Below, one piece after another: positions 51,894-64,000 of a DNA stretch of 64,000 bases. The position numbers and the translations under genes are program-made. Each line of letters begins with the position of its first letter. The first letter of the stretch is position 1. Location of the stretch: assembly GCF_058153355.1 (NCBI RefSeq), contig NZ_CM177019.1; one strand, 5' to 3'. A model generated the notes under the pieces. It was given only the letters and a program-made list of their open reading frames with translations. It did not search any database and was not told the DNA's origin.

Positions 51894-52526
51894 TTAACGA
51901 GTGCCGTAAACGACGATGGTTTTACCGTGTGCGGAGATCAGGTTCTGATCTTCCAGCATCTTCAGAATGCGCCCCACGGTTTCACGAGAACAGCCGACAA
52001 TCTGACCGATTTCCTGACGGGTAATTTTGATTTGCATACCGTCCGGGTGAGTCATGGCATCCGGTTGTTTTGCCAGGTTCAGCAGAGTCTGTGCAATGCG
52101 GCCCGTCACGTCGAGGAACGCCAGGTTGCCCACTTTCTCTGAAGTGACTTGCAAACGACGCGCCATCTGTGCAGAAAGACGCATCAGAATGTCCGGGTTT
52201 ACCTGAATCAATTGGCGAAATTTTTTGTATGAAATTTCAGCCACTTCACAGGCGGTTTTCGCACGTACCCATGCGCTACGTTCCTGGCCTTCTTCAAACA
52301 GGCCCAGTTCGCCAATAAAATCACCCTGATTCAGATAGGAGAGGATCATTTCTTTACCCTCTTCATCTTTGATCAGCACTGCCACAGAGCCTTTAACGAT
52401 GTAGTACAGCGTTTCCGCTTTTTCACCCTGGTGAATAAGCGTGCTCTTGGATGGGTACTTATGAATGTGGCAATGAGACAAGAACCATTCGAGAGTCGGG
52501 TCTGTTTGCGGTTTGCCAAGCACCAT
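51894..52526 (-). CDS. crp: cAMP receptor protein
   Basis: 210 aa, [50 protein letters not shown]... Confidence 0.98.
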
Positions 52527-52642
52527 GCGCGGTTATCCTCTGTTATAAGCTTTCTCCAGAGCCAGAAAACGCCGCTGTCTCTGGATTGCCGAAATTGTGC
52601 TTCCCGCTACCTGGGAAGGGGCTATCAACTGTACTGCACGGT

Positions 52643-52663
52643 AATGTGACGTCCTTTGCATAC
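52643..52663. promoter_or_regulatory. Candidate CRP autoregulatory site in the crp leader/promoter region
   Basis: aaTGTGAcgtcctTTGCAtac approximates TGTGA-N6-TCACA; the location fits the known downstream CRP site of crp. Not verified. Confidence 0.4.
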
Positions 52664-52828
52664 ATGCAGTACATCAATGTATTACTGTAGCATCCTGACT
52701 GTTTTAGCATAGCTTTCGCTTTGTGTCTCCTGGTGTCTCGCTTCAGCATGACCCAGGTCGCCTTCCGTTGCGCGATTTGGTTAGTACGCGTACTCTGTCA
52801 GGAAAATTGACGCAGTGGAGTAGCAAAA

Positions 52829-53233
52829 ATGCAAGCGCGAGTGAAGTGGGTCGAAGGGTTAACTTTTCTGGGCGAATCCGCCTCTGGTCACCAGATTTTA
52901 ATGGACGGCAACTCAGGCGATAAAGCACCAAGTCCGATGGAAATGGTGTTGATGGCGGCGGGAGGCTGTAGCGCCATCGATGTGGTTTCTATCCTGCAAA
53001 AGGGGCGTCAGGATGTGGTCGATTGTGAAGTAAAACTGACCTCTGAACGCCGCGAAGAGGCACCACGCCTGTTTACGCACATTAATTTGCATTTTATCGT
53101 CACCGGTCGCGACCTGAAAGACGCAGCAGTTGCGCGTGCGGTTGATCTCTCTGCCGAGAAATATTGCTCAGTAGCGTTAATGCTGGAAAAAGCGGTAAAT
53201 ATTACTCACTCGTATGAAGTGGTGGCCGTGTGA
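52829..53233 (+). CDS. yhfA: OsmC-family protein YhfA
   Basis: 134-aa ORF divergent from crp. Confidence 0.85.
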   Translation: MQARVKWVEGLTFLGESASGHQILMDGNSGDKAPSPMEMVLMAAGGCSAIDVVSILQKGRQDVVDCEVKLTSERREEAPRLFTHINLHFIVTGRDLKDAAVARAVDLSAEKYCSVALMLEKAVNITHSYEVVAV

Positions 53234-53287
53234 TTTAATGTCAGGAGTACGATGCCGGATAATTGTTTATCCGGCATATTAGCAGAG

Positions 53288-54157
53288 TTACTCGATTTTC
53301 TTTCCTTCCATCAATCGTTGCACCAGCGGCAGCATAATTAATTCCATTGCCAGACCCATTTTACCGCCCGGTACCACTAACGTATTGATGTGGGAAATGA
53401 ATGAGCCTTGCAACATCGCCAGCAGCCAGGGGAAATCGATCCCTTCCAGATTACGAAAATGGATCACCACAAAGCTTTCATCCAGCGACGGGATAGCTTT
53501 TGCCGCGAACGGGTTTGAGGTGTCAACGGTGGGGACGCGCTGGAAGTTAAGATGGGTGCGGGAAAACTGCGGTGTGATGTAGTTGATATAGTCTTCCATT
53601 GAGCGCACTACTGAGTCCATCACTGCTTCTCGTGAGTGCCCGCGCTCGCTGGTGTCGCGGATCAGTTTTTGAATCCACTCAAGGTTAACGATAGGCACCA
53701 CGCCAACCAGTAAATCCACATGTTGCGCAACGTTATGATGTGGCGTGACCACGCCGCCGTGTAGCCCTTCATAAAACAGTACATCAGTGGGTTCCGGTAA
53801 AGGTTGCCATGGGGTGAATGTTCCCGGCACCTGATTCCACGGTACGGCTTCGTCGTACGTATGCAGATATTTGCGTGATTTTCCTTTGCCGCTCTGACCG
53901 TATTCAATGAAGGTTTGTTCCAGCAGGCCGAAGTCGTTCGCTTCGGGGCCAAAGTAGCTGATATGCCGCCCGGCATCACGCGCCTTGCGGATCGCCATGT
54001 CCATTTCCGGGCGCGTGTAACGGTGAAAACTGTCGCCTTCCACCTCAGCTGCATGCAGATTTAACTGCGCGAATATTTTACGAAACGCGAGACTGGTGGT
54101 GGTGGTCCCCGCGCCGCTGGATCCTGTTACCGCAATGACCGGATGTTTGGCAGACAT
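53288..54157 (-). CDS. prkB: Putative phosphoribulokinase
   Basis: 289 aa, MSAKHPVIAVTGSSGAGTTTTSLAF (P-loop). Confidence 0.9.
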   Translation of the reverse strand: MSAKHPVIAVTGSSGAGTTTTSLAFRKIFAQLNLHAAEVEGDSFHRYTRPEMDMAIRKARDAGRHISYFGPEANDFGLLEQTFIEYGQSGKGKSRKYLHTYDEAVPWNQVPGTFTPWQPLPEPTDVLFYEGLHGGVVTPHHNVAQHVDLLVGVVPIVNLEWIQKLIRDTSERGHSREAVMDSVVRSMEDYINYITPQFSRTHLNFQRVPTVDTSNPFAAKAIPSLDESFVVIHFRNLEGIDFPWLLAMLQGSFISHINTLVVPGGKMGLAMELIMLPLVQRLMEGKKIE

Positions 54158-54210
54158 AGTAACTCCATGACTTAGCTATCATTATTATCTCGTCCGCCGA
54201 CGGCTGCAGG

Positions 54211-54429
54211 TTATTCGCGAAACTGACTGCGCGGCATGATATTGACCGTTTCGTGCAGCTCCGACCATACCAGCACCGCTTCTCCGCACTGTAGCTGGCG
54301 TTTGACGTCGGCGACTTTCTGTTCAAGTGTACGCTCATGTTCACCATAATCGGTGCCTTCGCGTAACACAAAACTTTCAATTAAATTTTCCAGCGTTTCG
54401 GGGGAGAGTTCTTGCCACGGAATCAACAT
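54211..54429 (-). CDS. yheU: UPF0270 protein YheU
   Basis: 72 aa, [30 protein letters not shown]... Confidence 0.85.
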
Positions 54430-55445
54430 GATTTCGCCTCCAGATACGTTGTTAACCAGTCAGGAATGCGTGACTCCAGCCACATTTGCGGATGAAATAA
54501 TGTACCGCCAAGAAAGCCAACATGACCACCATGTTCAGTCAGTTGATACTCCACCTGCGGGGGGAGATTTTCCGGTTTCGGGATCACCTGATGATCCATA
54601 AACGGATCGTCTTTGGCGTGAATAATCAGTGTCGGTTTGGCGATCTGGTTCAGCATCGGCATGGCGCTACACTGACGATAATAGTCGATAGCGTCAGCGT
54701 AGCCGTGAATTCTGGCGGTGATCAGATCGTCAAATTCACGGATGCGACGTACCGATTTTAACTGTGCGAGATTAATCGGCAGCGTACCGGGATAGGCTGC
54801 CAGTTTGCGCGCAGCATTGGCTTTTAACAGGTTCAGCAAGTAACGCTGATAAACGCGGGAAAAGCCCTTTTCCATATGATAACTACAGGCTTCCAGCATA
54901 AATGGCGCGGAGACAATTACCGCTGCATCAATCGGGAGGTTATTACCTTCTTTTGCCAGCAAACAGGCGAGCATATTACCGCCGAGCGAATAGCCGACGG
55001 CAGCCGTTGGCGCATGTCCAAATTCGCGCTGCAGCCAGCGTAAAAACCAGCTGGCGTCTTCGGTTTCGCCCGAATGGTAAATGCGGTGCATACGGTTTGG
55101 TTCACCGCTGCATCCGCGAAAATGCATCACCACGCCCAGCCAGCCGCGTTTTTGCGCCGCCTCGACCAGACCGTGGGCGTAAGGGCTATTGAGGCTGCCC
55201 TCCAGCCCGTGAAACACCACTAAACGCGGTTTATGGTTCGCCTGGGCAGGGTCTTCACTCCATGCGAGATCGACAAAATCGCCGTCGGGCAACTCCAGTC
55301 GCTGCCAGTGCGGGGTGAATTTCACCTTGCGACGAAACAGACGCGGCAGCATGGTTTGCAGATGACAATTGCTAAAGCCGCGCATAGGGGTGAATTCAGC
55401 ACTGCTGCTGAATTCATTGGCATCGGTCGTCGTTATCTGCGCCAT
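54423..55445 (-). CDS. yheT: Putative alpha/beta hydrolase YheT
   Basis: 340 aa with a GYSLGG nucleophile-elbow motif. Confidence 0.85.
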
Positions 55446-57358
55446 CAGTTGCTTTGGCCTTCCAGCAGCATCTGCTCAAGCTGCTCCTGGGCTTCCAGCC
55501 ACGCCATTTCGCACTCTTCCAGCCCGGATTTGGCGCTGGCTTGCTGTTGCAGGCAGGCGGTCAACTCCGCTTTACGGCTTTGATCGTACAGTTCGCTGTC
55601 GCCGAGTTTCTCTTCCGCCTGCGCCAGTTGCGCGTTCAGCTTCTCCATCTCTTTTTCCAGACGGGCGATTTCTTTACGCAGTGGCTGGGTTTGCGCACGC
55701 AGCTCCGCTTCCCGACGCTTCTGGTCTTTACGTGCCTGGGCGCTGTTCGCGTTCTCTTTTGGCGCGTCGTCGGTCTGGTTTTCCTGCTTTTGAACGTCGC
55801 TCAACCACTGTTGATAATCTTCCAGATCGCCGTCGAACGGTTCGACTTTACGATCGTGAACCAGATAGAGATCGTCAGTGGTGGAACGCAACAAATGGCG
55901 GTCGTGCGAAACGACAACCAATGCGCCTTCAAACTCGATCAACGCTTCAGTCAGTGCCTGGCGCATGTCGAGGTCAAGGTGGTTAGTCGGTTCGTCGAGC
56001 AGCAGTAGATTCGGACGCTGCCAGACGATTAATGCCAGCACCAGGCGGGCTTTTTCCCCACCGGAGAAACGGCGCGTTTCTTCCGTCACTTTATCGCCCT
56101 GGAAACCAAAGCCACCGAGGTAATCACGCAGTTTTTGTTCTAGTTCCTGCGGTGCTAAACGTGCCAGATGTTGAATAGGCGATTCGTCGGCGCGTAGATA
56201 TTCCAGTTGATGCTGGGCGAAGTAACCGAGTTTGATCCCTTTCGCCAGGCCAATTTCACCGCTGACTGGCGCAAGTTCGCCGGCTAACAGTTTGATCAAT
56301 GTCGATTTACCCGCGCCGTTGCGGCCTAACAGACCAATGCGCGAACCCGGCACCAGATTCAGTTTAATCGAGTCGAGAATAATGCGATCGCCATAACCCG
56401 CGCTGACCTTTTCCATTTTCAACAACGGATTTGGCAGGCTTTCCGGCGCGCGGAAGCTAAAGCGGAACGGGTTGTCGACGTGCGCGGGGGCAATCAACTC
56501 CATACGCTCGAGCATCTTAATACGGCTCTGGGCCTGCTTCGCTTTGGTGGCTTTGGCACGGAAACGGTCGATATAACTTTGCAGATGTGCCACGCGCTCT
56601 TGCTGGCTTTCATACATCGCCTGTTGCTGTGCCAGACGGGTAGCACGCTGCACTTCAAACGAGCTGTAGTTGCCGGTGTACTCGAACATGTTTTGCTGTT
56701 CGATATGAATAATTTTATCAACAATCGGATCGAGGAAGTCGCGGTCGTGGGAGATCAGGATCAGCGTGCCCTGATAGCTCTTCAGCCATTTTTCCAGCCA
56801 GATAACAGCATCGAGATCGAGGTGGTTAGTTGGTTCGTCGAGCAGCAGCAAGTCTGAACGGCAAATCAGCGCCTGGGCGAGGTTGAGACGCATACGCCAG
56901 CCACCGGAGAAATCACTTACCGGGCGCTCCAGTTGTTCATTGCTGAAACCGAGGCCGTGCAGCAGGCTGGCGGCGCGGGAGCGAATACTCCATGCGTCAA
57001 TAGCATCCAGCTTGCCATGAATGGTCGCAATGGCGTGCCCGTCGTTACGTTCGTTGGCGTCGTGTAGCTGCGCTTCCAGTTGACGATATTCACGGTCGCC
57101 GTCAATGACATATTCCAGCGCCGCTTGCGGTAGCGCTGGTGTTTCCTGATTCACCCACGCCAGTTGCCAGCTTCCTGGAAAGGTGTAGCTGCCGCCGTCG
57201 GCGCTGATTTCATTTTTCAGCAATGCCAGCAGGGTAGATTTACCACAGCCGTTTTTACCCACCAGGCCGACTTTCTGCCCGGGGTTGATGGTGGCGGTGG
57301 CATTATCCAGCAGGACGCGCACGCCGCGACGAATTTGTAACGAGGAGAAAACAATCAT
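55445..57358 (-). CDS. yheS: ABC-F family ATPase YheS
   Basis: 637 aa with two ABC cassettes (GKNGCGKST and GRNGAGKST) and a C-terminal coiled coil. Confidence 0.9.
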   Translation of the reverse strand: MIVFSSLQIRRGVRVLLDNATATINPGQKVGLVGKNGCGKSTLLALLKNEISADGGSYTFPGSWQLAWVNQETPALPQAALEYVIDGDREYRQLEAQLHDANERNDGHAIATIHGKLDAIDAWSIRSRAASLLHGLGFSNEQLERPVSDFSGGWRMRLNLAQALICRSDLLLLDEPTNHLDLDAVIWLEKWLKSYQGTLILISHDRDFLDPIVDKIIHIEQQNMFEYTGNYSSFEVQRATRLAQQQAMYESQQERVAHLQSYIDRFRAKATKAKQAQSRIKMLERMELIAPAHVDNPFRFSFRAPESLPNPLLKMEKVSAGYGDRIILDSIKLNLVPGSRIGLLGRNGAGKSTLIKLLAGELAPVSGEIGLAKGIKLGYFAQHQLEYLRADESPIQHLARLAPQELEQKLRDYLGGFGFQGDKVTEETRRFSGGEKARLVLALIVWQRPNLLLLDEPTNHLDLDMRQALTEALIEFEGALVVVSHDRHLLRSTTDDLYLVHDRKVEPFDGDLEDYQQWLSDVQKQENQTDDAPKENANSAQARKDQKRREAELRAQTQPLRKEIARLEKEMEKLNAQLAQAEEKLGDSELYDQSRKAELTACLQQQASAKSGLEECEMAWLEAQEQLEQMLLEGQSN

Positions 57359-57485
57359 AAGGCGCCGTATGTTCAGACTATGTTAACTTATCATTATGAT
57401 AATGTAATGTATGGGCGAGCTGCCGCACCGGGCGCAATGGTAGCCCAAAACAGCGACTATACACAAAAACCATACCGGGAGGGGG

Positions 57486-58040
57486 ATGATGTCTCAGCCA
57501 GCGAAAGTTTTGCTGCTGTATGCCCATCCGGAATCTCAGGACTCGGTGGCAAACCGGGTACTGCTTAAACCGGCCACGCAGCTCAGCAATGTTACCGTGC
57601 ACGACCTTTATGCGCACTATCCCGATTTTTTTATTGATATCCCCCGTGAGCAGGCATTACTGCGCGAGCACGAGGTGATTGTCTTTCAGCACCCTCTTTA
57701 TACCTATAGCTGCCCGGCGCTACTGAAAGAGTGGCTGGACCGGGTATTAAGCCGTGGTTTTGCCAGCGGGCCGGGAGGAAACCAACTGGCGGGAAAGTAC
57801 TGGCGTAGCGTGATTACCACCGGCGAGCCGGAAAGTGCTTACCGTTATGACGCATTGAATCGCTACCCGATGAGCGATGTTCTGCGCCCCTTTGAGCTGG
57901 CGGCGGGCATGTGCCGGATGCATTGGTTAAGCCCTATCATTATTTACTGGGCGAGACGGCAAAGCGCACAGGAGCTGGCGAGTCACGCCAGAGCCTACGG
58001 TGACTGGCTGGCAAATCCGCTGTCTCCAGGAGGCTGCTGA
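57486..58040 (+). CDS. kefG: Glutathione-regulated K+ efflux system ancillary protein KefG
   Basis: 184 aa, [20 protein letters not shown]... (flavodoxin-like quinone oxidoreductase fold). Confidence 0.9.
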
Positions 58041-59845
58041 TGGAAGGTTCCGATTTTTTACTCGCAGGAGTGCTGTTTCTCTTCGCGGCGGTGGCTGCGG
58101 TGCCGTTGGCATCGCGGCTGGGTATTGGCGCTGTGTTGGGATATTTGCTGGCAGGGATTGCAATTGGCCCGTGGGGGCTAGGGTTTATTCGCGACGTCGA
58201 TGAGATCCTCCACTTTTCGGAACTCGGCGTGGTGTTCCTGATGTTTATCATCGGCCTTGAGTTGAATCCCTCCAAGCTTTGGCAACTGCGGCGTTCGATT
58301 TTTGGCGTAGGCGCGGCACAGGTGCTGTTAAGCGCGGCGTTGCTGGCGGGATTATTGATGCTGACGGATTTCGCCTGGCAGGCGGCGGTGGTCGGTGGCA
58401 TTGGCCTTGCGATGTCTTCAACTGCAATGGCGTTGCAATTGATGCGTGAGAAAGGGATGAATCGCAGCGAATCCGGCCAGTTAGGTTTCTCGGTACTGCT
58501 GTTTCAGGATCTGGCGGTGATCCCGGCACTGGCGTTAGTACCGCTGCTGGCGGGATCGGCAGATGAACATTTTGACTGGATGAAGATCGGCATGAAGGTG
58601 CTGGCGTTTGTCGGCATGCTGATTGGGGGGCGCTATTTACTGCGTCCGGTATTCCGTTTTATTGCTGCTTCTGGCGTGCGGGAAGTGTTCACTGCCGCGA
58701 CGCTGTTGCTGGTGTTGGGTTCTGCATTGTTTATGGATGCGCTGGGGTTGTCGATGGCGCTCGGTACGTTTATTGCGGGCGTGCTGCTGGCGGAAAGTGA
58801 ATATCGCCATGAACTGGAAACGGCTATCGATCCCTTCAAAGGCTTGCTGCTCGGACTGTTTTTTATCTCTGTCGGCATGTCGCTCAACCTCGGGGTGCTT
58901 TATACCCATCTGTTGTGGGTAGTGATAAGCGTGGTTGTGCTGGTGGCGGTGAAAATTCTCGTGCTGTATTTGCTGGCGCGGCTGTATGGCGTGCGTAGCT
59001 CAGAGCGGATGCAGTTTGCTGGCGTGTTGAGTCAGGGCGGTGAGTTTGCCTTTGTCCTCTTTTCTACTGCTTCTTCACAACGCTTATTCCAGGGCGACCA
59101 GATGGCGCTATTGCTGGTGACGGTGACGCTTTCCATGATGACCACGCCGCTGCTGATGAAGCTGGTGGATAAATGGCTATCCCGCCAGTTTAACGGACCG
59201 GAAGAAGAAGACGAAAAACCGTGGGTCAACGATGATAAACCCCAGGTCATAGTCGTGGGCTTCGGACGTTTTGGGCAGGTGATTGGTCGTTTGTTGATGG
59301 CCAATAAAATGCGCATTACCGTGCTGGAGCGGGATATCAGCGCCGTTAACCTGATGCGCAAATATGGCTACAAAGTTTATTACGGCGACGCCACGCAGGT
59401 AGATCTTTTACGTTCTGCGGGTGCAGAGGCCGCTGAGTCTATCGTCATTACCTGTAACGAACCGGAAGACACCATGAAGCTGGTGGAGATTTGCCAGCAA
59501 CACTTCCCGCATTTGCATATTCTTGCGCGAGCGCGCGGACGTGTGGAAGCGCATGAGTTATTACAGGCAGGGGTGACGCAGTTTTCTCGTGAGACATTCT
59601 CCAGTGCGTTAGAGCTGGGGCGCAAGACGCTGGTCACGCTTGGCATGCATCCACATCAGGCGCAGCGGGCGCAACTGCATTTTCGCCGCCTGGATATGCG
59701 GATGTTGCGGGAGCTCATCCCAATGCATGCCGATACCGTACAAATTTCTCGCGCCAGGGAAGCCCGACGCGAACTGGAAGAGATTTTCCAGCGTGAAATG
59801 CAACAAGAACGACGCCAGCTGGACGGCTGGGATGAATTTGAGTAG
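58040..59845 (+). CDS. kefB: Glutathione-regulated potassium-efflux system protein KefB
   Basis: 601 aa with a membrane domain plus a C-terminal KTN/RCK domain ([17 protein letters not shown]); ATG overlaps the kefG stop. Confidence 0.95.
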
Positions 59846-59854
59846 AGGGTAAAG

Positions 59855-60055
59855 ATGGCAATCCGAAAACGTTTTATTGCGGGCGCAAAATGCCCGGCCT
59901 GTCAGGCGCAGGATTCAATGGCGATGTGGCGCGAAAATAATATTGATATTGTTGAATGTGTTAAGTGCGGACATCAGATGCGAGAAGCAGACAAAGAAGC
60001 CCGCGATCACGTTCGCAAAGATGAGCAAGTGATCGGGATTTTTCATCCGGACTAG
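59855..60055 (+). CDS. yheV: Zinc-ribbon protein YheV
   Basis: 66 aa with CPAC...CVKCGH. Confidence 0.85.
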   Translation: MAIRKRFIAGAKCPACQAQDSMAMWRENNIDIVECVKCGHQMREADKEARDHVRKDEQVIGIFHPD

Positions 60056-60149
60056 CGATATGCGCCGAGATTTTTTAAGCTAGTGAGTACACGGCTGCAG
60101 AATTCCGCTACAATCTGCGCCACTATTCTTCCCATGCTCAGGAGATATC

Positions 60150-60734
60150 ATGAAAGTAGCAAAAGACCTGGTGGTCAGCCTGGCCTATCAGGTACGTACA
60201 GAAGACGGTGTGTTGGTTGATGAGTCTCCGGTGAGTGCGCCGCTGGACTACCTGCATGGTCACGGTTCCCTGATCTCTGGCCTGGAAACGGCGCTGGAAG
60301 GTCACGAAGTTGGCGACAAATTTGATGTCGCTGTTGGCGCGAACGACGCTTACGGTCAGTACGACGAAAACCTGGTGCAACGCGTTCCTAAAGACGTATT
60401 TATGGGCGTTGATGAACTGCAGGTTGGTATGCGTTTCCTGGCTGAAACCGACCAGGGTCCGGTACCGGTTGAAATCACTGCGGTTGAAGACGATCACGTC
60501 GTGGTTGATGGTAACCACATGCTGGCCGGTCAGAACCTGAAATTCAACGTTGAAGTTGTGGCGATTCGCGAAGCGACTGAAGAAGAGCTGGCTCATGGCC
60601 ACGTTCACGGTGCGCACGATCATCACCACGATCACGACGGTTGCTGCGGTGGTCATGGCCACGATCACGGTCATGAACACGGTGGCGAAGGCTGCTGCGG
60701 CGGTAAAGGTAACGGCGGTTGCGGTTGCCACTAA
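60150..60734 (+). CDS. slyD: FKBP-type peptidyl-prolyl isomerase SlyD with His/Cys-rich metal-binding tail
   Basis: MKVAKDLVVSLAYQVRTEDGVLVDESPVSAPLDYLHGHGSLISGLE..., ending in a HGHVHGAHDHHHDHDGCCGG... tail. Confidence 0.95.
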   Translation: MKVAKDLVVSLAYQVRTEDGVLVDESPVSAPLDYLHGHGSLISGLETALEGHEVGDKFDVAVGANDAYGQYDENLVQRVPKDVFMGVDELQVGMRFLAETDQGPVPVEITAVEDDHVVVDGNHMLAGQNLKFNVEVVAIREATEEELAHGHVHGAHDHHHDHDGCCGGHGHDHGHEHGGEGCCGGKGNGGCGCH

Positions 60735-60751
60735 TACCGAAAAAGTGACAA

Positions 60752-60778
60752 AAAAGCGGGGAATCCCCGCTTTTTTTA
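60752..60778. terminator. Bidirectional intrinsic terminator (slyD / slyX)
   Basis: aaaaagcggggaatccccgcttttttt. Confidence 0.8.
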
Positions 60779-60782
60779 CGCC

Positions 60783-61001
60783 TCAATAATGTGGCGGTGG
60801 CGTTTCTTCAGCCTGCGACGCGATGTTCGACGGCTGGCTGGCTTTTAGCTTCTCGGTCAGCAGACGCAGATGATCGCGCAGTTTCGCCATCTCCATTTCA
60901 TGAGCGGTCACCGTGACGTTCAGTTCTTCAATGGTGATTTCCTGAAAAGCCAGTCGGCTCTCCAGCTCTGCCAGGCGTGCTTCCAATGATAAATCCTGCA
61001 T
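60783..61001 (-). CDS. slyX: Protein SlyX
   Basis: 72 aa, [28 protein letters not shown]... (coiled coil). Confidence 0.9.
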
Positions 61002-61221
61002 GATTCACCTCTTTTGTCGAATGGTCGCCGCGGATTCTACTTAACTTTGCTGCCCGAGACAGCACTCATTTCGCGGTCATCGAAACTAATTTAAACAAAA
61101 AGAGTCTGAAAATAGATGATAATAGGGCGTGTCTGTATGTAGATTTGTTCGACAACGCTTTATAGTACCCTTCTGATAATAGTTAACCCTGGGGTGAGAT
61201 GCCCCGATCCTGGAGATATGG

Positions 61222-62034
61222 ATGAAATCACTGTTTAAAGTAACGCTGCTGGCGACCACAATGGCCGTTGCCCTGCATGCACCGATCACTTTTGCTGCTG
61301 AAGCTGCAAAACCTGCTACAACTGCTGACAGCAAAGCAGCGTTCAAAAATGACGATCAGAAATCAGCTTATGCACTGGGTGCTTCGCTGGGTCGTTACAT
61401 GGAAAACTCTCTTAAAGAACAAGAAAAACTGGGCATCAAACTGGATAAAGATCAGCTGATTGCGGGTGTTCAGGATGCATTTGCTGATAAGAGCAAACTC
61501 TCCGACCAAGAGATCGAACAGACACTGCAAGCATTCGAAGCTCGCGTGAAGTCTTCTGCTCAGGCGAAGATGGAAAAAGACGCGGCAGATAACGAAGCGA
61601 AAGGTAAAGAGTACCGCGAGAAATTTGCCAAAGAGAAAGGTGTGAAAACCTCTTCAACTGGTCTGGTTTATCAGGTAGTAGAAGCCGGTAAAGGCGAAGC
61701 ACCGAAAGACAGCGATACTGTTGTCGTGAACTACAAGGGTACGCTGATCGACGGTAAAGAGTTCGACAACTCTTACACCCGTGGTGAACCGCTCTCTTTC
61801 CGTCTGGACGGTGTTATTCCGGGTTGGACAGAAGGTCTGAAGAACATCAAGAAAGGCGGTAAGATCAAACTGGTTATTCCACCAGAACTGGCTTACGGCA
61901 AAGCGGGTGTTCCGGGGATCCCACCGAATTCTACCCTGGTGTTTGACGTAGAGCTGCTGGATGTGAAACCAGCGCCGAAGGCTGATGCAAAGCCGGAAGC
62001 TGATGCGAAAGCCGCAGATTCTGCTAAAAAATAA
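61222..62034 (+). CDS. fkpA: Periplasmic FKBP-type peptidyl-prolyl isomerase FkpA
   Basis: 270 aa with a signal peptide, dimerisation helices and an FKBP domain (…VVNYKGTLIDGKEFDNSY…). Confidence 0.95.
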   Translation: MKSLFKVTLLATTMAVALHAPITFAAEAAKPATTADSKAAFKNDDQKSAYALGASLGRYMENSLKEQEKLGIKLDKDQLIAGVQDAFADKSKLSDQEIEQTLQAFEARVKSSAQAKMEKDAADNEAKGKEYREKFAKEKGVKTSSTGLVYQVVEAGKGEAPKDSDTVVVNYKGTLIDGKEFDNSYTRGEPLSFRLDGVIPGWTEGLKNIKKGGKIKLVIPPELAYGKAGVPGIPPNSTLVFDVELLDVKPAPKADAKPEADAKAADSAKK

Positions 62035-62043
62035 GCATTAAGA

Positions 62044-62074
62044 ACCGCCGCCTGACCAGGCGGCGGTTTTTTTA
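62044..62074 (+). terminator. Intrinsic terminator after fkpA
   Basis: accgccgcctgaccaggcggcggtttttttatt. Confidence 0.8.
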
Positions 62075-62200
62075 TTACAGGCCGGATATAATTAGTGCTG
62101 GAAAGCGGAACCTCCGCTGTATTAATTTAGTTACCCGCATCATTAATGAGCCTGCCCTGAAAAGTTAACGACAGGCTCCTGAAAAGGAGTGTTTTTTTTC

Positions 62201-63308
<1,108 letters not shown>

Positions 63309-63309
<1 letters not shown>

Positions 63310-63668
63310 TGAAACGAATTGCGTTTGTTTTTTCTACTGCGCCTCATGGTACCGCTGCAGGCCGGGAAGGTTTAGATGCTTTACTGGCAACTTCCGCATT
63401 AACTGACGATCTGGCTGTCTTCTTTATTGCTGATGGCGTTTTTCAGCTGTTGCCAGGACAAAAGCCCGATGCAGTGCTGGCGCGTGATTACATTGCCACT
63501 TTTAAATTGTTGGGTCTGTACGACATTGAACAGTGCTGGGTTTGTGCGGCTTCACTGCGCGAACGCGGGTTAGATCCGCAGACCCCCTTTGTTGTCGAAG
63601 CCACGCCGCTCGAAGCAGATGCCTTACGCCGCGAACTCGCCAACTACGATGTTATTTTGAGGTTTTGA
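63309..63668 (+). CDS. tusC: Sulfur relay protein TusC
   Basis: 119 aa, [26 protein letters not shown]... Confidence 0.9.
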
Positions 63669-63675
63669 GGCGTTT

Positions 63676-63963
63676 ATGCTGCACACATTACATCGTTCAC
63701 CCTGGCTGACGGATTTTGCTGCGCTGTTGCGTCTACTCAGTGAAGGCGACGAACTGCTATTATTGCAAGATGGTGTAACTGCCGCAGTTGACGGTAACCG
63801 CTACCTTGAAAGTCTGCGTAATGCCCCCATTAAGGTCTATGCCCTGAACGAAGACCTTATTGCCCGCGGTTTGACTGGTCAAATTTCGAACGACATCATT
63901 CCCATTGACTATACTGATTTCGTCAGACTTACGGTTAAGCACTCCAGCCAGATGGCCTGGTGA
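63676..63963 (+). CDS. tusB: Sulfur relay protein TusB
   Basis: 95 aa, [21 protein letters not shown]... Confidence 0.9.
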
Positions 63964-63985
63964 TGGCGGGATCGTTGTATATTTC

Positions 63986-63991
63986 TTGACA
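63986..63991 (+). promoter_or_regulatory. Probable -35 hexamer (TTGACA) of the rpsL (str operon) promoter
   Basis: A consensus TTGACA lies immediately downstream of tusB, where rpsL follows in K-12. The -10 is beyond the window. Confidence 0.35.
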
Positions 63992-64000
63992 CCTTTTCGG

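Follow-up and report, generated by a model that had tools for sequence, protein, structure and literature searches.

The slyD Locus and Its Gene Neighborhood

The window, i.e., the whole stretch of 64,000 nucleotides that was analyzed (NCBI RefSeq assembly GCF_058153355.1, contig NZ_CM177019.1), carries a slyD gene within the gene order kefG-kefB-yheV-slyD-slyX-fkpA. With kefB upstream and fkpA downstream, this arrangement corresponds to the standard slyD neighborhood of Escherichia coli. The following elements were located at and next to the gene:

59855..60055, yheV, on one side of slyD
60150..60734, plus strand, slyD ORF, 194 aa, 585 bp (ORF list and alignment with K-12)
60750..60776, no strand assigned, GC-rich hairpin flanked by an A-run and a T-run, 12 pairs and a T-tail (consensus scan only)
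60783..61001, minus strand, slyX, convergent with slyD

The ORF of 194 aa and its C-terminal sequence were found exactly as given in the preliminary description of this DNA. Apart from a gap of two amino acids, the deduced protein is 100% identical to SlyD of E. coli K-12 in the alignment, and residues 1-163 are the same in both proteins. The exact 194-aa product carries PF00254 (FKBP_C), i.e., an FKBP-type PPIase domain, and the RefSeq annotation of the identical protein is slyD (WP_000861331.1). On the DNA level, the best identity to E. coli alleles was 99.0%, and 97.3% was reached with K-12-type alleles. A whole-gene search matched 5,425 of 5,426 complete E. coli genomes, the matched genes being annotated as slyD. 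Sequence and conserved neighborhood together identify the gene as an ortholog of E. coli slyD. A single one of the 5,426 complete genomes was without any slyD match, and one match to the slyD region sits on a record classed as plasmid.

Located between the convergent genes slyD and slyX, the hairpin at 60750..60776 likely acts as a shared bidirectional intrinsic terminator. An antisense ORF of 197 aa with a GTG start (60138-60731, minus strand) spans all of slyD and mirrors its frame; it is almost certainly spurious.

Architecture and Repeat Content of the Metal-Binding Tail

SlyD combines PPIase and IF chaperone domains with an unstructured metal-binding tail at its C-terminus (PMC7055735). 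The C-terminus of the window protein reads HGHVHGAHDHHHDHDGCCGGHGHDHGHEHGGEGCCGGKGNGGCGCH, and the following features were defined within its coding region:

60594..60731, plus strand, His/Cys/Asp-rich C-terminal tail, His149-His194, 46 aa, 48 aa in K-12 (sequence)
60615..60638, plus strand, His-Asp tract CAC GAT CAT CAC CAC GAT CAC GAC (HDHHHDHD), hot spot of length alleles
60627..60638, plus strand, indel site with two CACGAY units left (CACGAT CACGAC); K-12 and R32_14_1F have three (CACGAT CACGAC CACGAC)
60659..60668, plus strand, copy 2 of the direct repeat CCACGATCAC, copy 1 at 60626-60635 (repeat search)
60717..60728, plus strand, two tandem GGTTGC copies at the 3' end (Gly-Cys-Gly-Cys), another short tract prone to slippage (sequence)

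The extension behind the HGHVHG motif comprises 14 His, 6 Cys, 4 Asp, 2 Glu and 16 Gly, compared with 15 His, 6 Cys, 5 Asp, 2 Glu and 16 Gly in K-12. The HGHVHG site, both GCCGG motifs and the CGCH end are retained. The start of the tail had earlier been set at 60580, which is 14 nt upstream of His149 (60594); this difference is immaterial.

The tail had also been described as encoded by repetitive codons. This was borne out insofar as the coding region contains short direct repeats of 9-19 nt (repeat search with 6-nt seeds) and an internal direct duplication of 49 nt with 73% identity, in which 60615-60663 (HDHHHDHDGCCGGHGH) corresponds to 60666-60714 (HGHEHGGEGCCGGKGN). A tandem array in the strict sense was not present, as Tandem Repeats Finder (TRF) reported none within 60500-60800, even at a score of 30, because the repeats are too short and their copies too few. 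In view of the 73% identity of the 49-nt duplication, the two GCCGG modules appear to descend from a unit of about 17 aa that was duplicated in tandem long ago.

Comparison with the K-12 Allele

In the K-12 MG1655 record, slyD comprises 591 bp and encodes 196 aa (WP_000861334.1), precisely the length that the preliminary description had given for K-12. In the pairwise alignment, both proteins were 100% identical except for the gap, which means that they differ in length, and the sole difference on the protein level is one missing His-Asp: K-12 reads HDHHHDHDHDGCC at this position, the window HDHHHDHDGCC. The corresponding DNA is CACGAT-CACGAC-CACGAC-GGT in K-12 and CACGAT-CACGAC-GGT in the window. 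The missing 6 bp have no unique position and fit at any point of 60633-60638 or at the 3' edge of this segment. The window tail thus has one His fewer than the 15 of K-12 and one Asp fewer than the 5, with all 6 Cys present.

The best whole-gene match was R32_14_1F, which encodes 196 aa; the match spans 591 bp for the 585-bp query, so that the identity of 99.0% equals 585/591. Since MAFFT gap placement gave false mismatches between alleles which differ by an indel only, an exact-removal test was used instead. Removal of any 6-mer starting at 484-490 of the R32_14_1F gene results in the window gene with no other change in 585 bp, and removal of one CACGAC from the K-12 gene results in the gene of strain PEC422. 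The missing segment is therefore one unit of a CACGAC-CACGAC pair, and its loss recurs on the independent haplotype backgrounds of the R32_14_1F type and the K-12 type. As these backgrounds differ at about 10-12 synonymous sites, the same CACGAC loss must be attributed to independent events, which occurred at least twice.

Length Alleles among Complete E. coli Genomes

Tail length was surveyed in the set of 5,426 complete E. coli genomes with allele-specific queries, the match span being read for each record, and representative loci were compared codon by codon. Identity bands obtained with a 117-bp query from K-12 cannot part indels from SNP-rich alleles, a same-length allele with six SNPs giving 94.9%. 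The survey, which had been named as a check of the suspected length variation, revealed proteins of 183, 192, 194, 196, 201 and 202 aa in complete genomes. The counts given below are lower bounds, derived from the top-ranked matches of each search:

192 aa, at least 15 genomes, two junction types, HDHHHD and HDHDHD, the latter a 12-bp loss between ATCAC/CACGATCAC copies
192 aa, junction HDHHHD: NCTC9038, 382634_2f
192 aa, junction HDHDHD: H1827/12, FORC_082, 2013C-4830
192 aa, by span only: EC0026B (five times), E100341, AST19, AST205, 2012C-4227, Z1323PEC0014
194 aa, at least 8 genomes, four 6-bp junctions: PEC422, OY754443, E2348/69 (twice), O127:H6 (twice), MIN6, cM2a
194 aa, loss of CACGAC: window, PEC422, OY754443
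194 aa, loss of CACGAT: E2348/69
194 aa, loss of CCACGA, creating a CAT codon: MIN6
194 aa, loss of CACCAC, resulting in HDHDHDHD and thus a different protein: cM2a
183 aa, at least 3 genomes, 39-bp loss between two CCACGATCAC copies: VREC0864, HCP4S3_I4, O157:H7 TX 265-1
201 aa, at least 1 genome, 15-bp duplication in the HD tract: MB10 (L003 103-708)
202 aa, at least 1 genome, 18-bp duplication, GHGHDH: CP61_Sichuan (L093 181-789)

A second E2348/69 record and two O127:H6 genomes showed the same match identity as the E2348/69 record with the CACGAT loss; the junctions listed above are those of loci whose sequence was read. The 183-aa allele also drops the first Cys-Cys pair; the window allele, on the other hand, loses no Cys. 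Within O157:H7, the 183-aa allele was found in a single strain, and the other O157:H7 genomes among the matches listed were of standard length; the event in O157:H7 TX 265-1 is therefore recent. The 18-bp duplication of the 202-aa allele affects a different, second tract, located 3' of the first Cys pair.

About 99.5% of the 5,426 complete genomes encode the 196-aa form, and all variants together account for approximately 0.5%. Codon comparison (19 alleles and three more) located nearly all E. coli length differences in the tract 60615..60638. All length alleles seen are in frame, i.e., they differ by multiples of three nucleotides, and 26 contractions face two expansions among the complete-genome matches listed. 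For a synthetic allele extended by 6 bp, with four CACGAY units, no carrier was detected in a search which seeded 4,679 genomes and could miss divergent backgrounds. Strains with length variants derive from mixed sources, namely pig, human, chicken meat, cattle and dog, with no niche pattern visible.

Distribution in Wider Collections and Other Species

In wider collections, the exact 194-aa protein, which is labeled 'MULTISPECIES [Escherichia]' and includes CAS11146.1, was present on at least 330 contigs (737 index blocks). Two sequences of 192 aa occurred on 693 and 454 contigs, the latter also being labeled Shigella boydii, and a further member of the 192-aa cluster (P0023), labeled Shigella dysenteriae, on 113 contigs. 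Proteins of 183 aa and 201 aa were encoded on 174 and 103 contigs, respectively, and a 209-aa E. coli variant (P0032) on three. A natural E. coli variant (P0006, 34 contigs) arrives at 194 aa in another way: it ends in GNGGCH and is one Gly-Cys short, the GGTTGC pair at the 3' end being reduced to a single copy.

Seven loci encoding the exact 194-aa protein were compared with the window, the closest of them being 98.0% identical over 6.6 kb. For three contigs with the exact protein, identity to the window over 6.6 kb was 92.9-95.1%; in view of this identity they derive from divergent Escherichia lineages, and they share the same two-unit arrangement.

These data bear on the question whether the 6 bp are missing only because of a mistake in sequencing or assembly, the gene in truth encoding 196 aa. 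Low-complexity tracts are prone to indel mistakes by some assemblers and long-read polishers, and the tail haplotype of the window is absent from the 5,426 complete E. coli genomes (no match of at least 99% over 111 bp); the best match of the region 52000-64000 in this set was 99.1% over 12 kb, so that the set contains no genome of the source lineage. However, the gap comprises exactly one repeat unit in codon phase and translation can continue as far as the normal stop, whereas the usual errors are homopolymer indels of 1-2 nt and not clean losses of a 6-nt unit. The identical junction is found in PEC422, OY754443 and the three divergent Escherichia contigs, which are independent assemblies, and the exact protein on at least 330 contigs comes from several sources. 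We therefore consider an error of this kind extremely improbable.

The same contigs could also be taken to indicate that the 194-aa state is ancestral and was inherited, or imported by recombination, from a two-unit lineage, rather than having arisen by a fresh deletion. All three divergent contigs share the complete His-Asp tract of the window including its CAT codon, and the exact protein carries a label covering several species of the genus. However, not one of the 585 positions that the window gene shares with a 196-aa E. coli allele is different, whereas 17-22 sites separate it from the alleles of the divergent Escherichia, so that any import would be limited to a tiny patch. Moreover, the 196-type tail was found in E. 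whittamii and in a second E. coli-named species representative, and Salmonella SlyD likewise has 196 aa, but with HDHGED where HDHDHD stands. An ancestral or imported origin thus appears unlikely, even though the two-unit state in the divergent contigs leaves some doubt about the ancestral state of the genus.

Beyond the genus, the tails of 74 Enterobacterales species, measured from HGHVHG to the end, were 41-50 aa long, with HD/HE runs of very varied length; this range stems from a degenerate-pattern scan with one genome per species and is bounded by the gap limits of the scan.

Proposed Origin of the Length Alleles

Relative to the 196-aa form, each length allele has gained or lost either a complete repeat unit or the segment separating a pair of short direct repeats. 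In K-12, the distances between CACGATCAC copies are 12 and 39 nt, which equals the sizes of the 12-bp and 39-bp deletions, and in the 183-aa allele 39 bp between the CCACGATCAC copies were removed, a loss attributable to recombination or slippage between these copies. The repeat-driven length polymorphism which the preliminary description had suspected is hence supported: one CACGAC was lost from a tandem pair, 6-bp losses recur on different SNP backgrounds, and the alleles of -12, -39, +15 and +18 bp also end in short direct repeats. Losses of repeat units, a bias toward deletions and sizes in multiples of three constitute the signature of replication slippage or misalignment.

For the window allele, slipped-strand mispairing of neighboring CACGAC copies in the course of replication would have reduced the three tandem CACGAY units of the reference allele to two, resulting in a protein of 194 instead of 196 aa with unchanged PPIase and IF domains and a tail lacking one His and one Asp. 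The same tract would give rise to an in-frame series with -6 (four junctions), -12 (two junctions), -39, +15 and +18 bp, brought about by slippage or misalignment at short direct repeats and filtered by selection against frameshifts. Judged from the repeat context, slippage is the likely mechanism, although only two to three copies of the 6-mer are involved and TRF calls no tandem repeat. A phase-variable contingency locus was considered as well and rejected: TRF found no array, none of the alleles seen shifts the reading frame and only about 0.5% of the genomes carry a variant.

Taken as a whole, the explanation of the window slyD as a natural, nearly neutral in-frame slippage allele is in our view very well founded.

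Expected Effect on Tail Function

The SlyD tail binds up to seven Ni(II) at heterogeneous sites and has been called 'variable among SlyDs' (PMC7055735). Only its complete removal in the truncation SlyD155, which leaves one Ni site, abolishes hydrogenase activation in vivo (PMC7055735). Furthermore, the tail aids the Ni(II)-specific transfer involving HypB (PMC12284835). Binding of Ni(II) and Zn(II) and support of [NiFe]-hydrogenase maturation are known for the 196-aa K-12 protein only (PMC7055735).

If the window protein acts likewise, its tail would bind Ni(II) and supply HypB in [NiFe]-hydrogenase maturation, and the loss of nickel capacity would amount to less than one of roughly seven sites. 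The functional effect of the 194-aa tail is probably negligible to slight, as far as can be predicted from the ligands encoded. We favor this near-neutral reading because of the ligand counts (a single His out of 15 and a single Asp out of 5 lost, all 6 Cys kept) and because shorter alleles persist; hundreds of contigs, some of them labeled Shigella, encode the 192-aa form with its still shorter tail. Differences in tail length are, moreover, commonplace between species. The earlier suggestion that a polymorphism of this kind could alter Ni/Zn binding capacity is probably overstated for a change of two amino acids.

The recurrence of many independent in-frame events within about 30 bp could alternatively reflect adaptive tuning, with the His-Asp tract as a site at which niche-favored tail lengths set Ni/Zn/Co buffering or the efficiency of hydrogenase maturation; the chances of this are very slim. 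In detail, in-frame changes would adjust nickel storage and HypB transfer or the tolerance of Ni, Co, Zn and Cu, and the window allele would represent one adaptive state, which we regard as highly doubtful. Equally little weight can be given to the lineages that come into question for such tuning, i.e., EPEC E2348/69, the Shigella-labeled strains and the divergent Escherichia. Hydrogenase activation depends on the tail, which can bind more than one metal ion (PMC7055735), and some short alleles are abundant on contigs, like the two 192-aa sequences, or mark a lineage, like the 194-aa form of E2348/69. Yet mutation bias alone predicts recurrence at short direct repeats, and purifying selection against frameshifts predicts that only in-frame alleles survive; in addition, all variants together reach only about 0.5% of the complete genomes and their carriers come from mixed hosts and sources, among which no niche stands out. 

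Significance of the Length Allele

The slyD tail length variant can be regarded as a rare, recurrent and ordinary known polymorphism. The protein encoded by the window allele has an existing catalogue entry, WP_000861331.1, and is also the SlyD found in the EPEC reference strain E2348/69. A limited literature search of top-ranked titles returned no publication on a length polymorphism of the slyD tail. During chemostat evolution, three of four fast-growth populations under glucose limitation acquired slyD mutations, namely a nonsynonymous SNP, a frameshift and two deletions of about 7 kb, with no tail indels among them (PMC3446313).

The overall importance of a tail change by two amino acids is very small. 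The variant illustrates that a metal-binding tail which is disordered and of low complexity can accommodate slight in-frame gains or losses of length, and that its short direct repeats give rise to them time and again. An annotation of SlyD with 194, 192 or 183 aa in E. coli is accordingly not an annotation error. Tail length might serve as a minor lineage marker, although its homoplasy makes it unreliable. For studies of tail composition versus Ni(II) stoichiometry, ready variants are at hand in the natural series from 183 to 209 aa.

Comparison with Known Systems

The closest characterized relative is K-12 SlyD (UniProt SLYD_ECOLI), with which all 194 aligned residues, the gene neighborhood, the FKBP_C domain and the tail architecture are shared; the K-12 gene has three CACGAY units and its protein 15 His and 5 Asp in the tail, whereas the window has two units, 14 His and 4 Asp. 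WP_000861331.1, known from EPEC O127:H6 E2348/69, PEC422 and other Escherichia, is identical to the window SlyD on the protein level. E2348/69, however, lost CACGAT, which leaves CAC GAC CAC GAC, whereas the window and PEC422 lost CACGAC, which leaves GAT CAC GAC, and the synonymous-SNP background of the window differs from those of both E2348/69 and PEC422.

The E. coli and Shigella alleles of 183, 192, 201, 202 and 209 aa share the hot spot with the window allele, are likewise in frame and bounded by short direct repeats, but differ from it in size and direction. SlyD orthologs of other species, like those of Helicobacter pylori and the tail-less one of Thermus thermophilus, combine a conserved PPIase/IF core with a variable C-terminal metal-binding extension, as observed here (PMC7055735). 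Their tails, however, represent fixed differences between species which concern many residues, whereas the window allele represents a polymorphism of two residues within a species. Simple-sequence contingency loci likewise undergo indels in coding regions by slippage in short repeats. Unlike these, slyD has only two to three hexamer copies and no frame-shifting on/off switch, and its variants are rare and stable within lineages.
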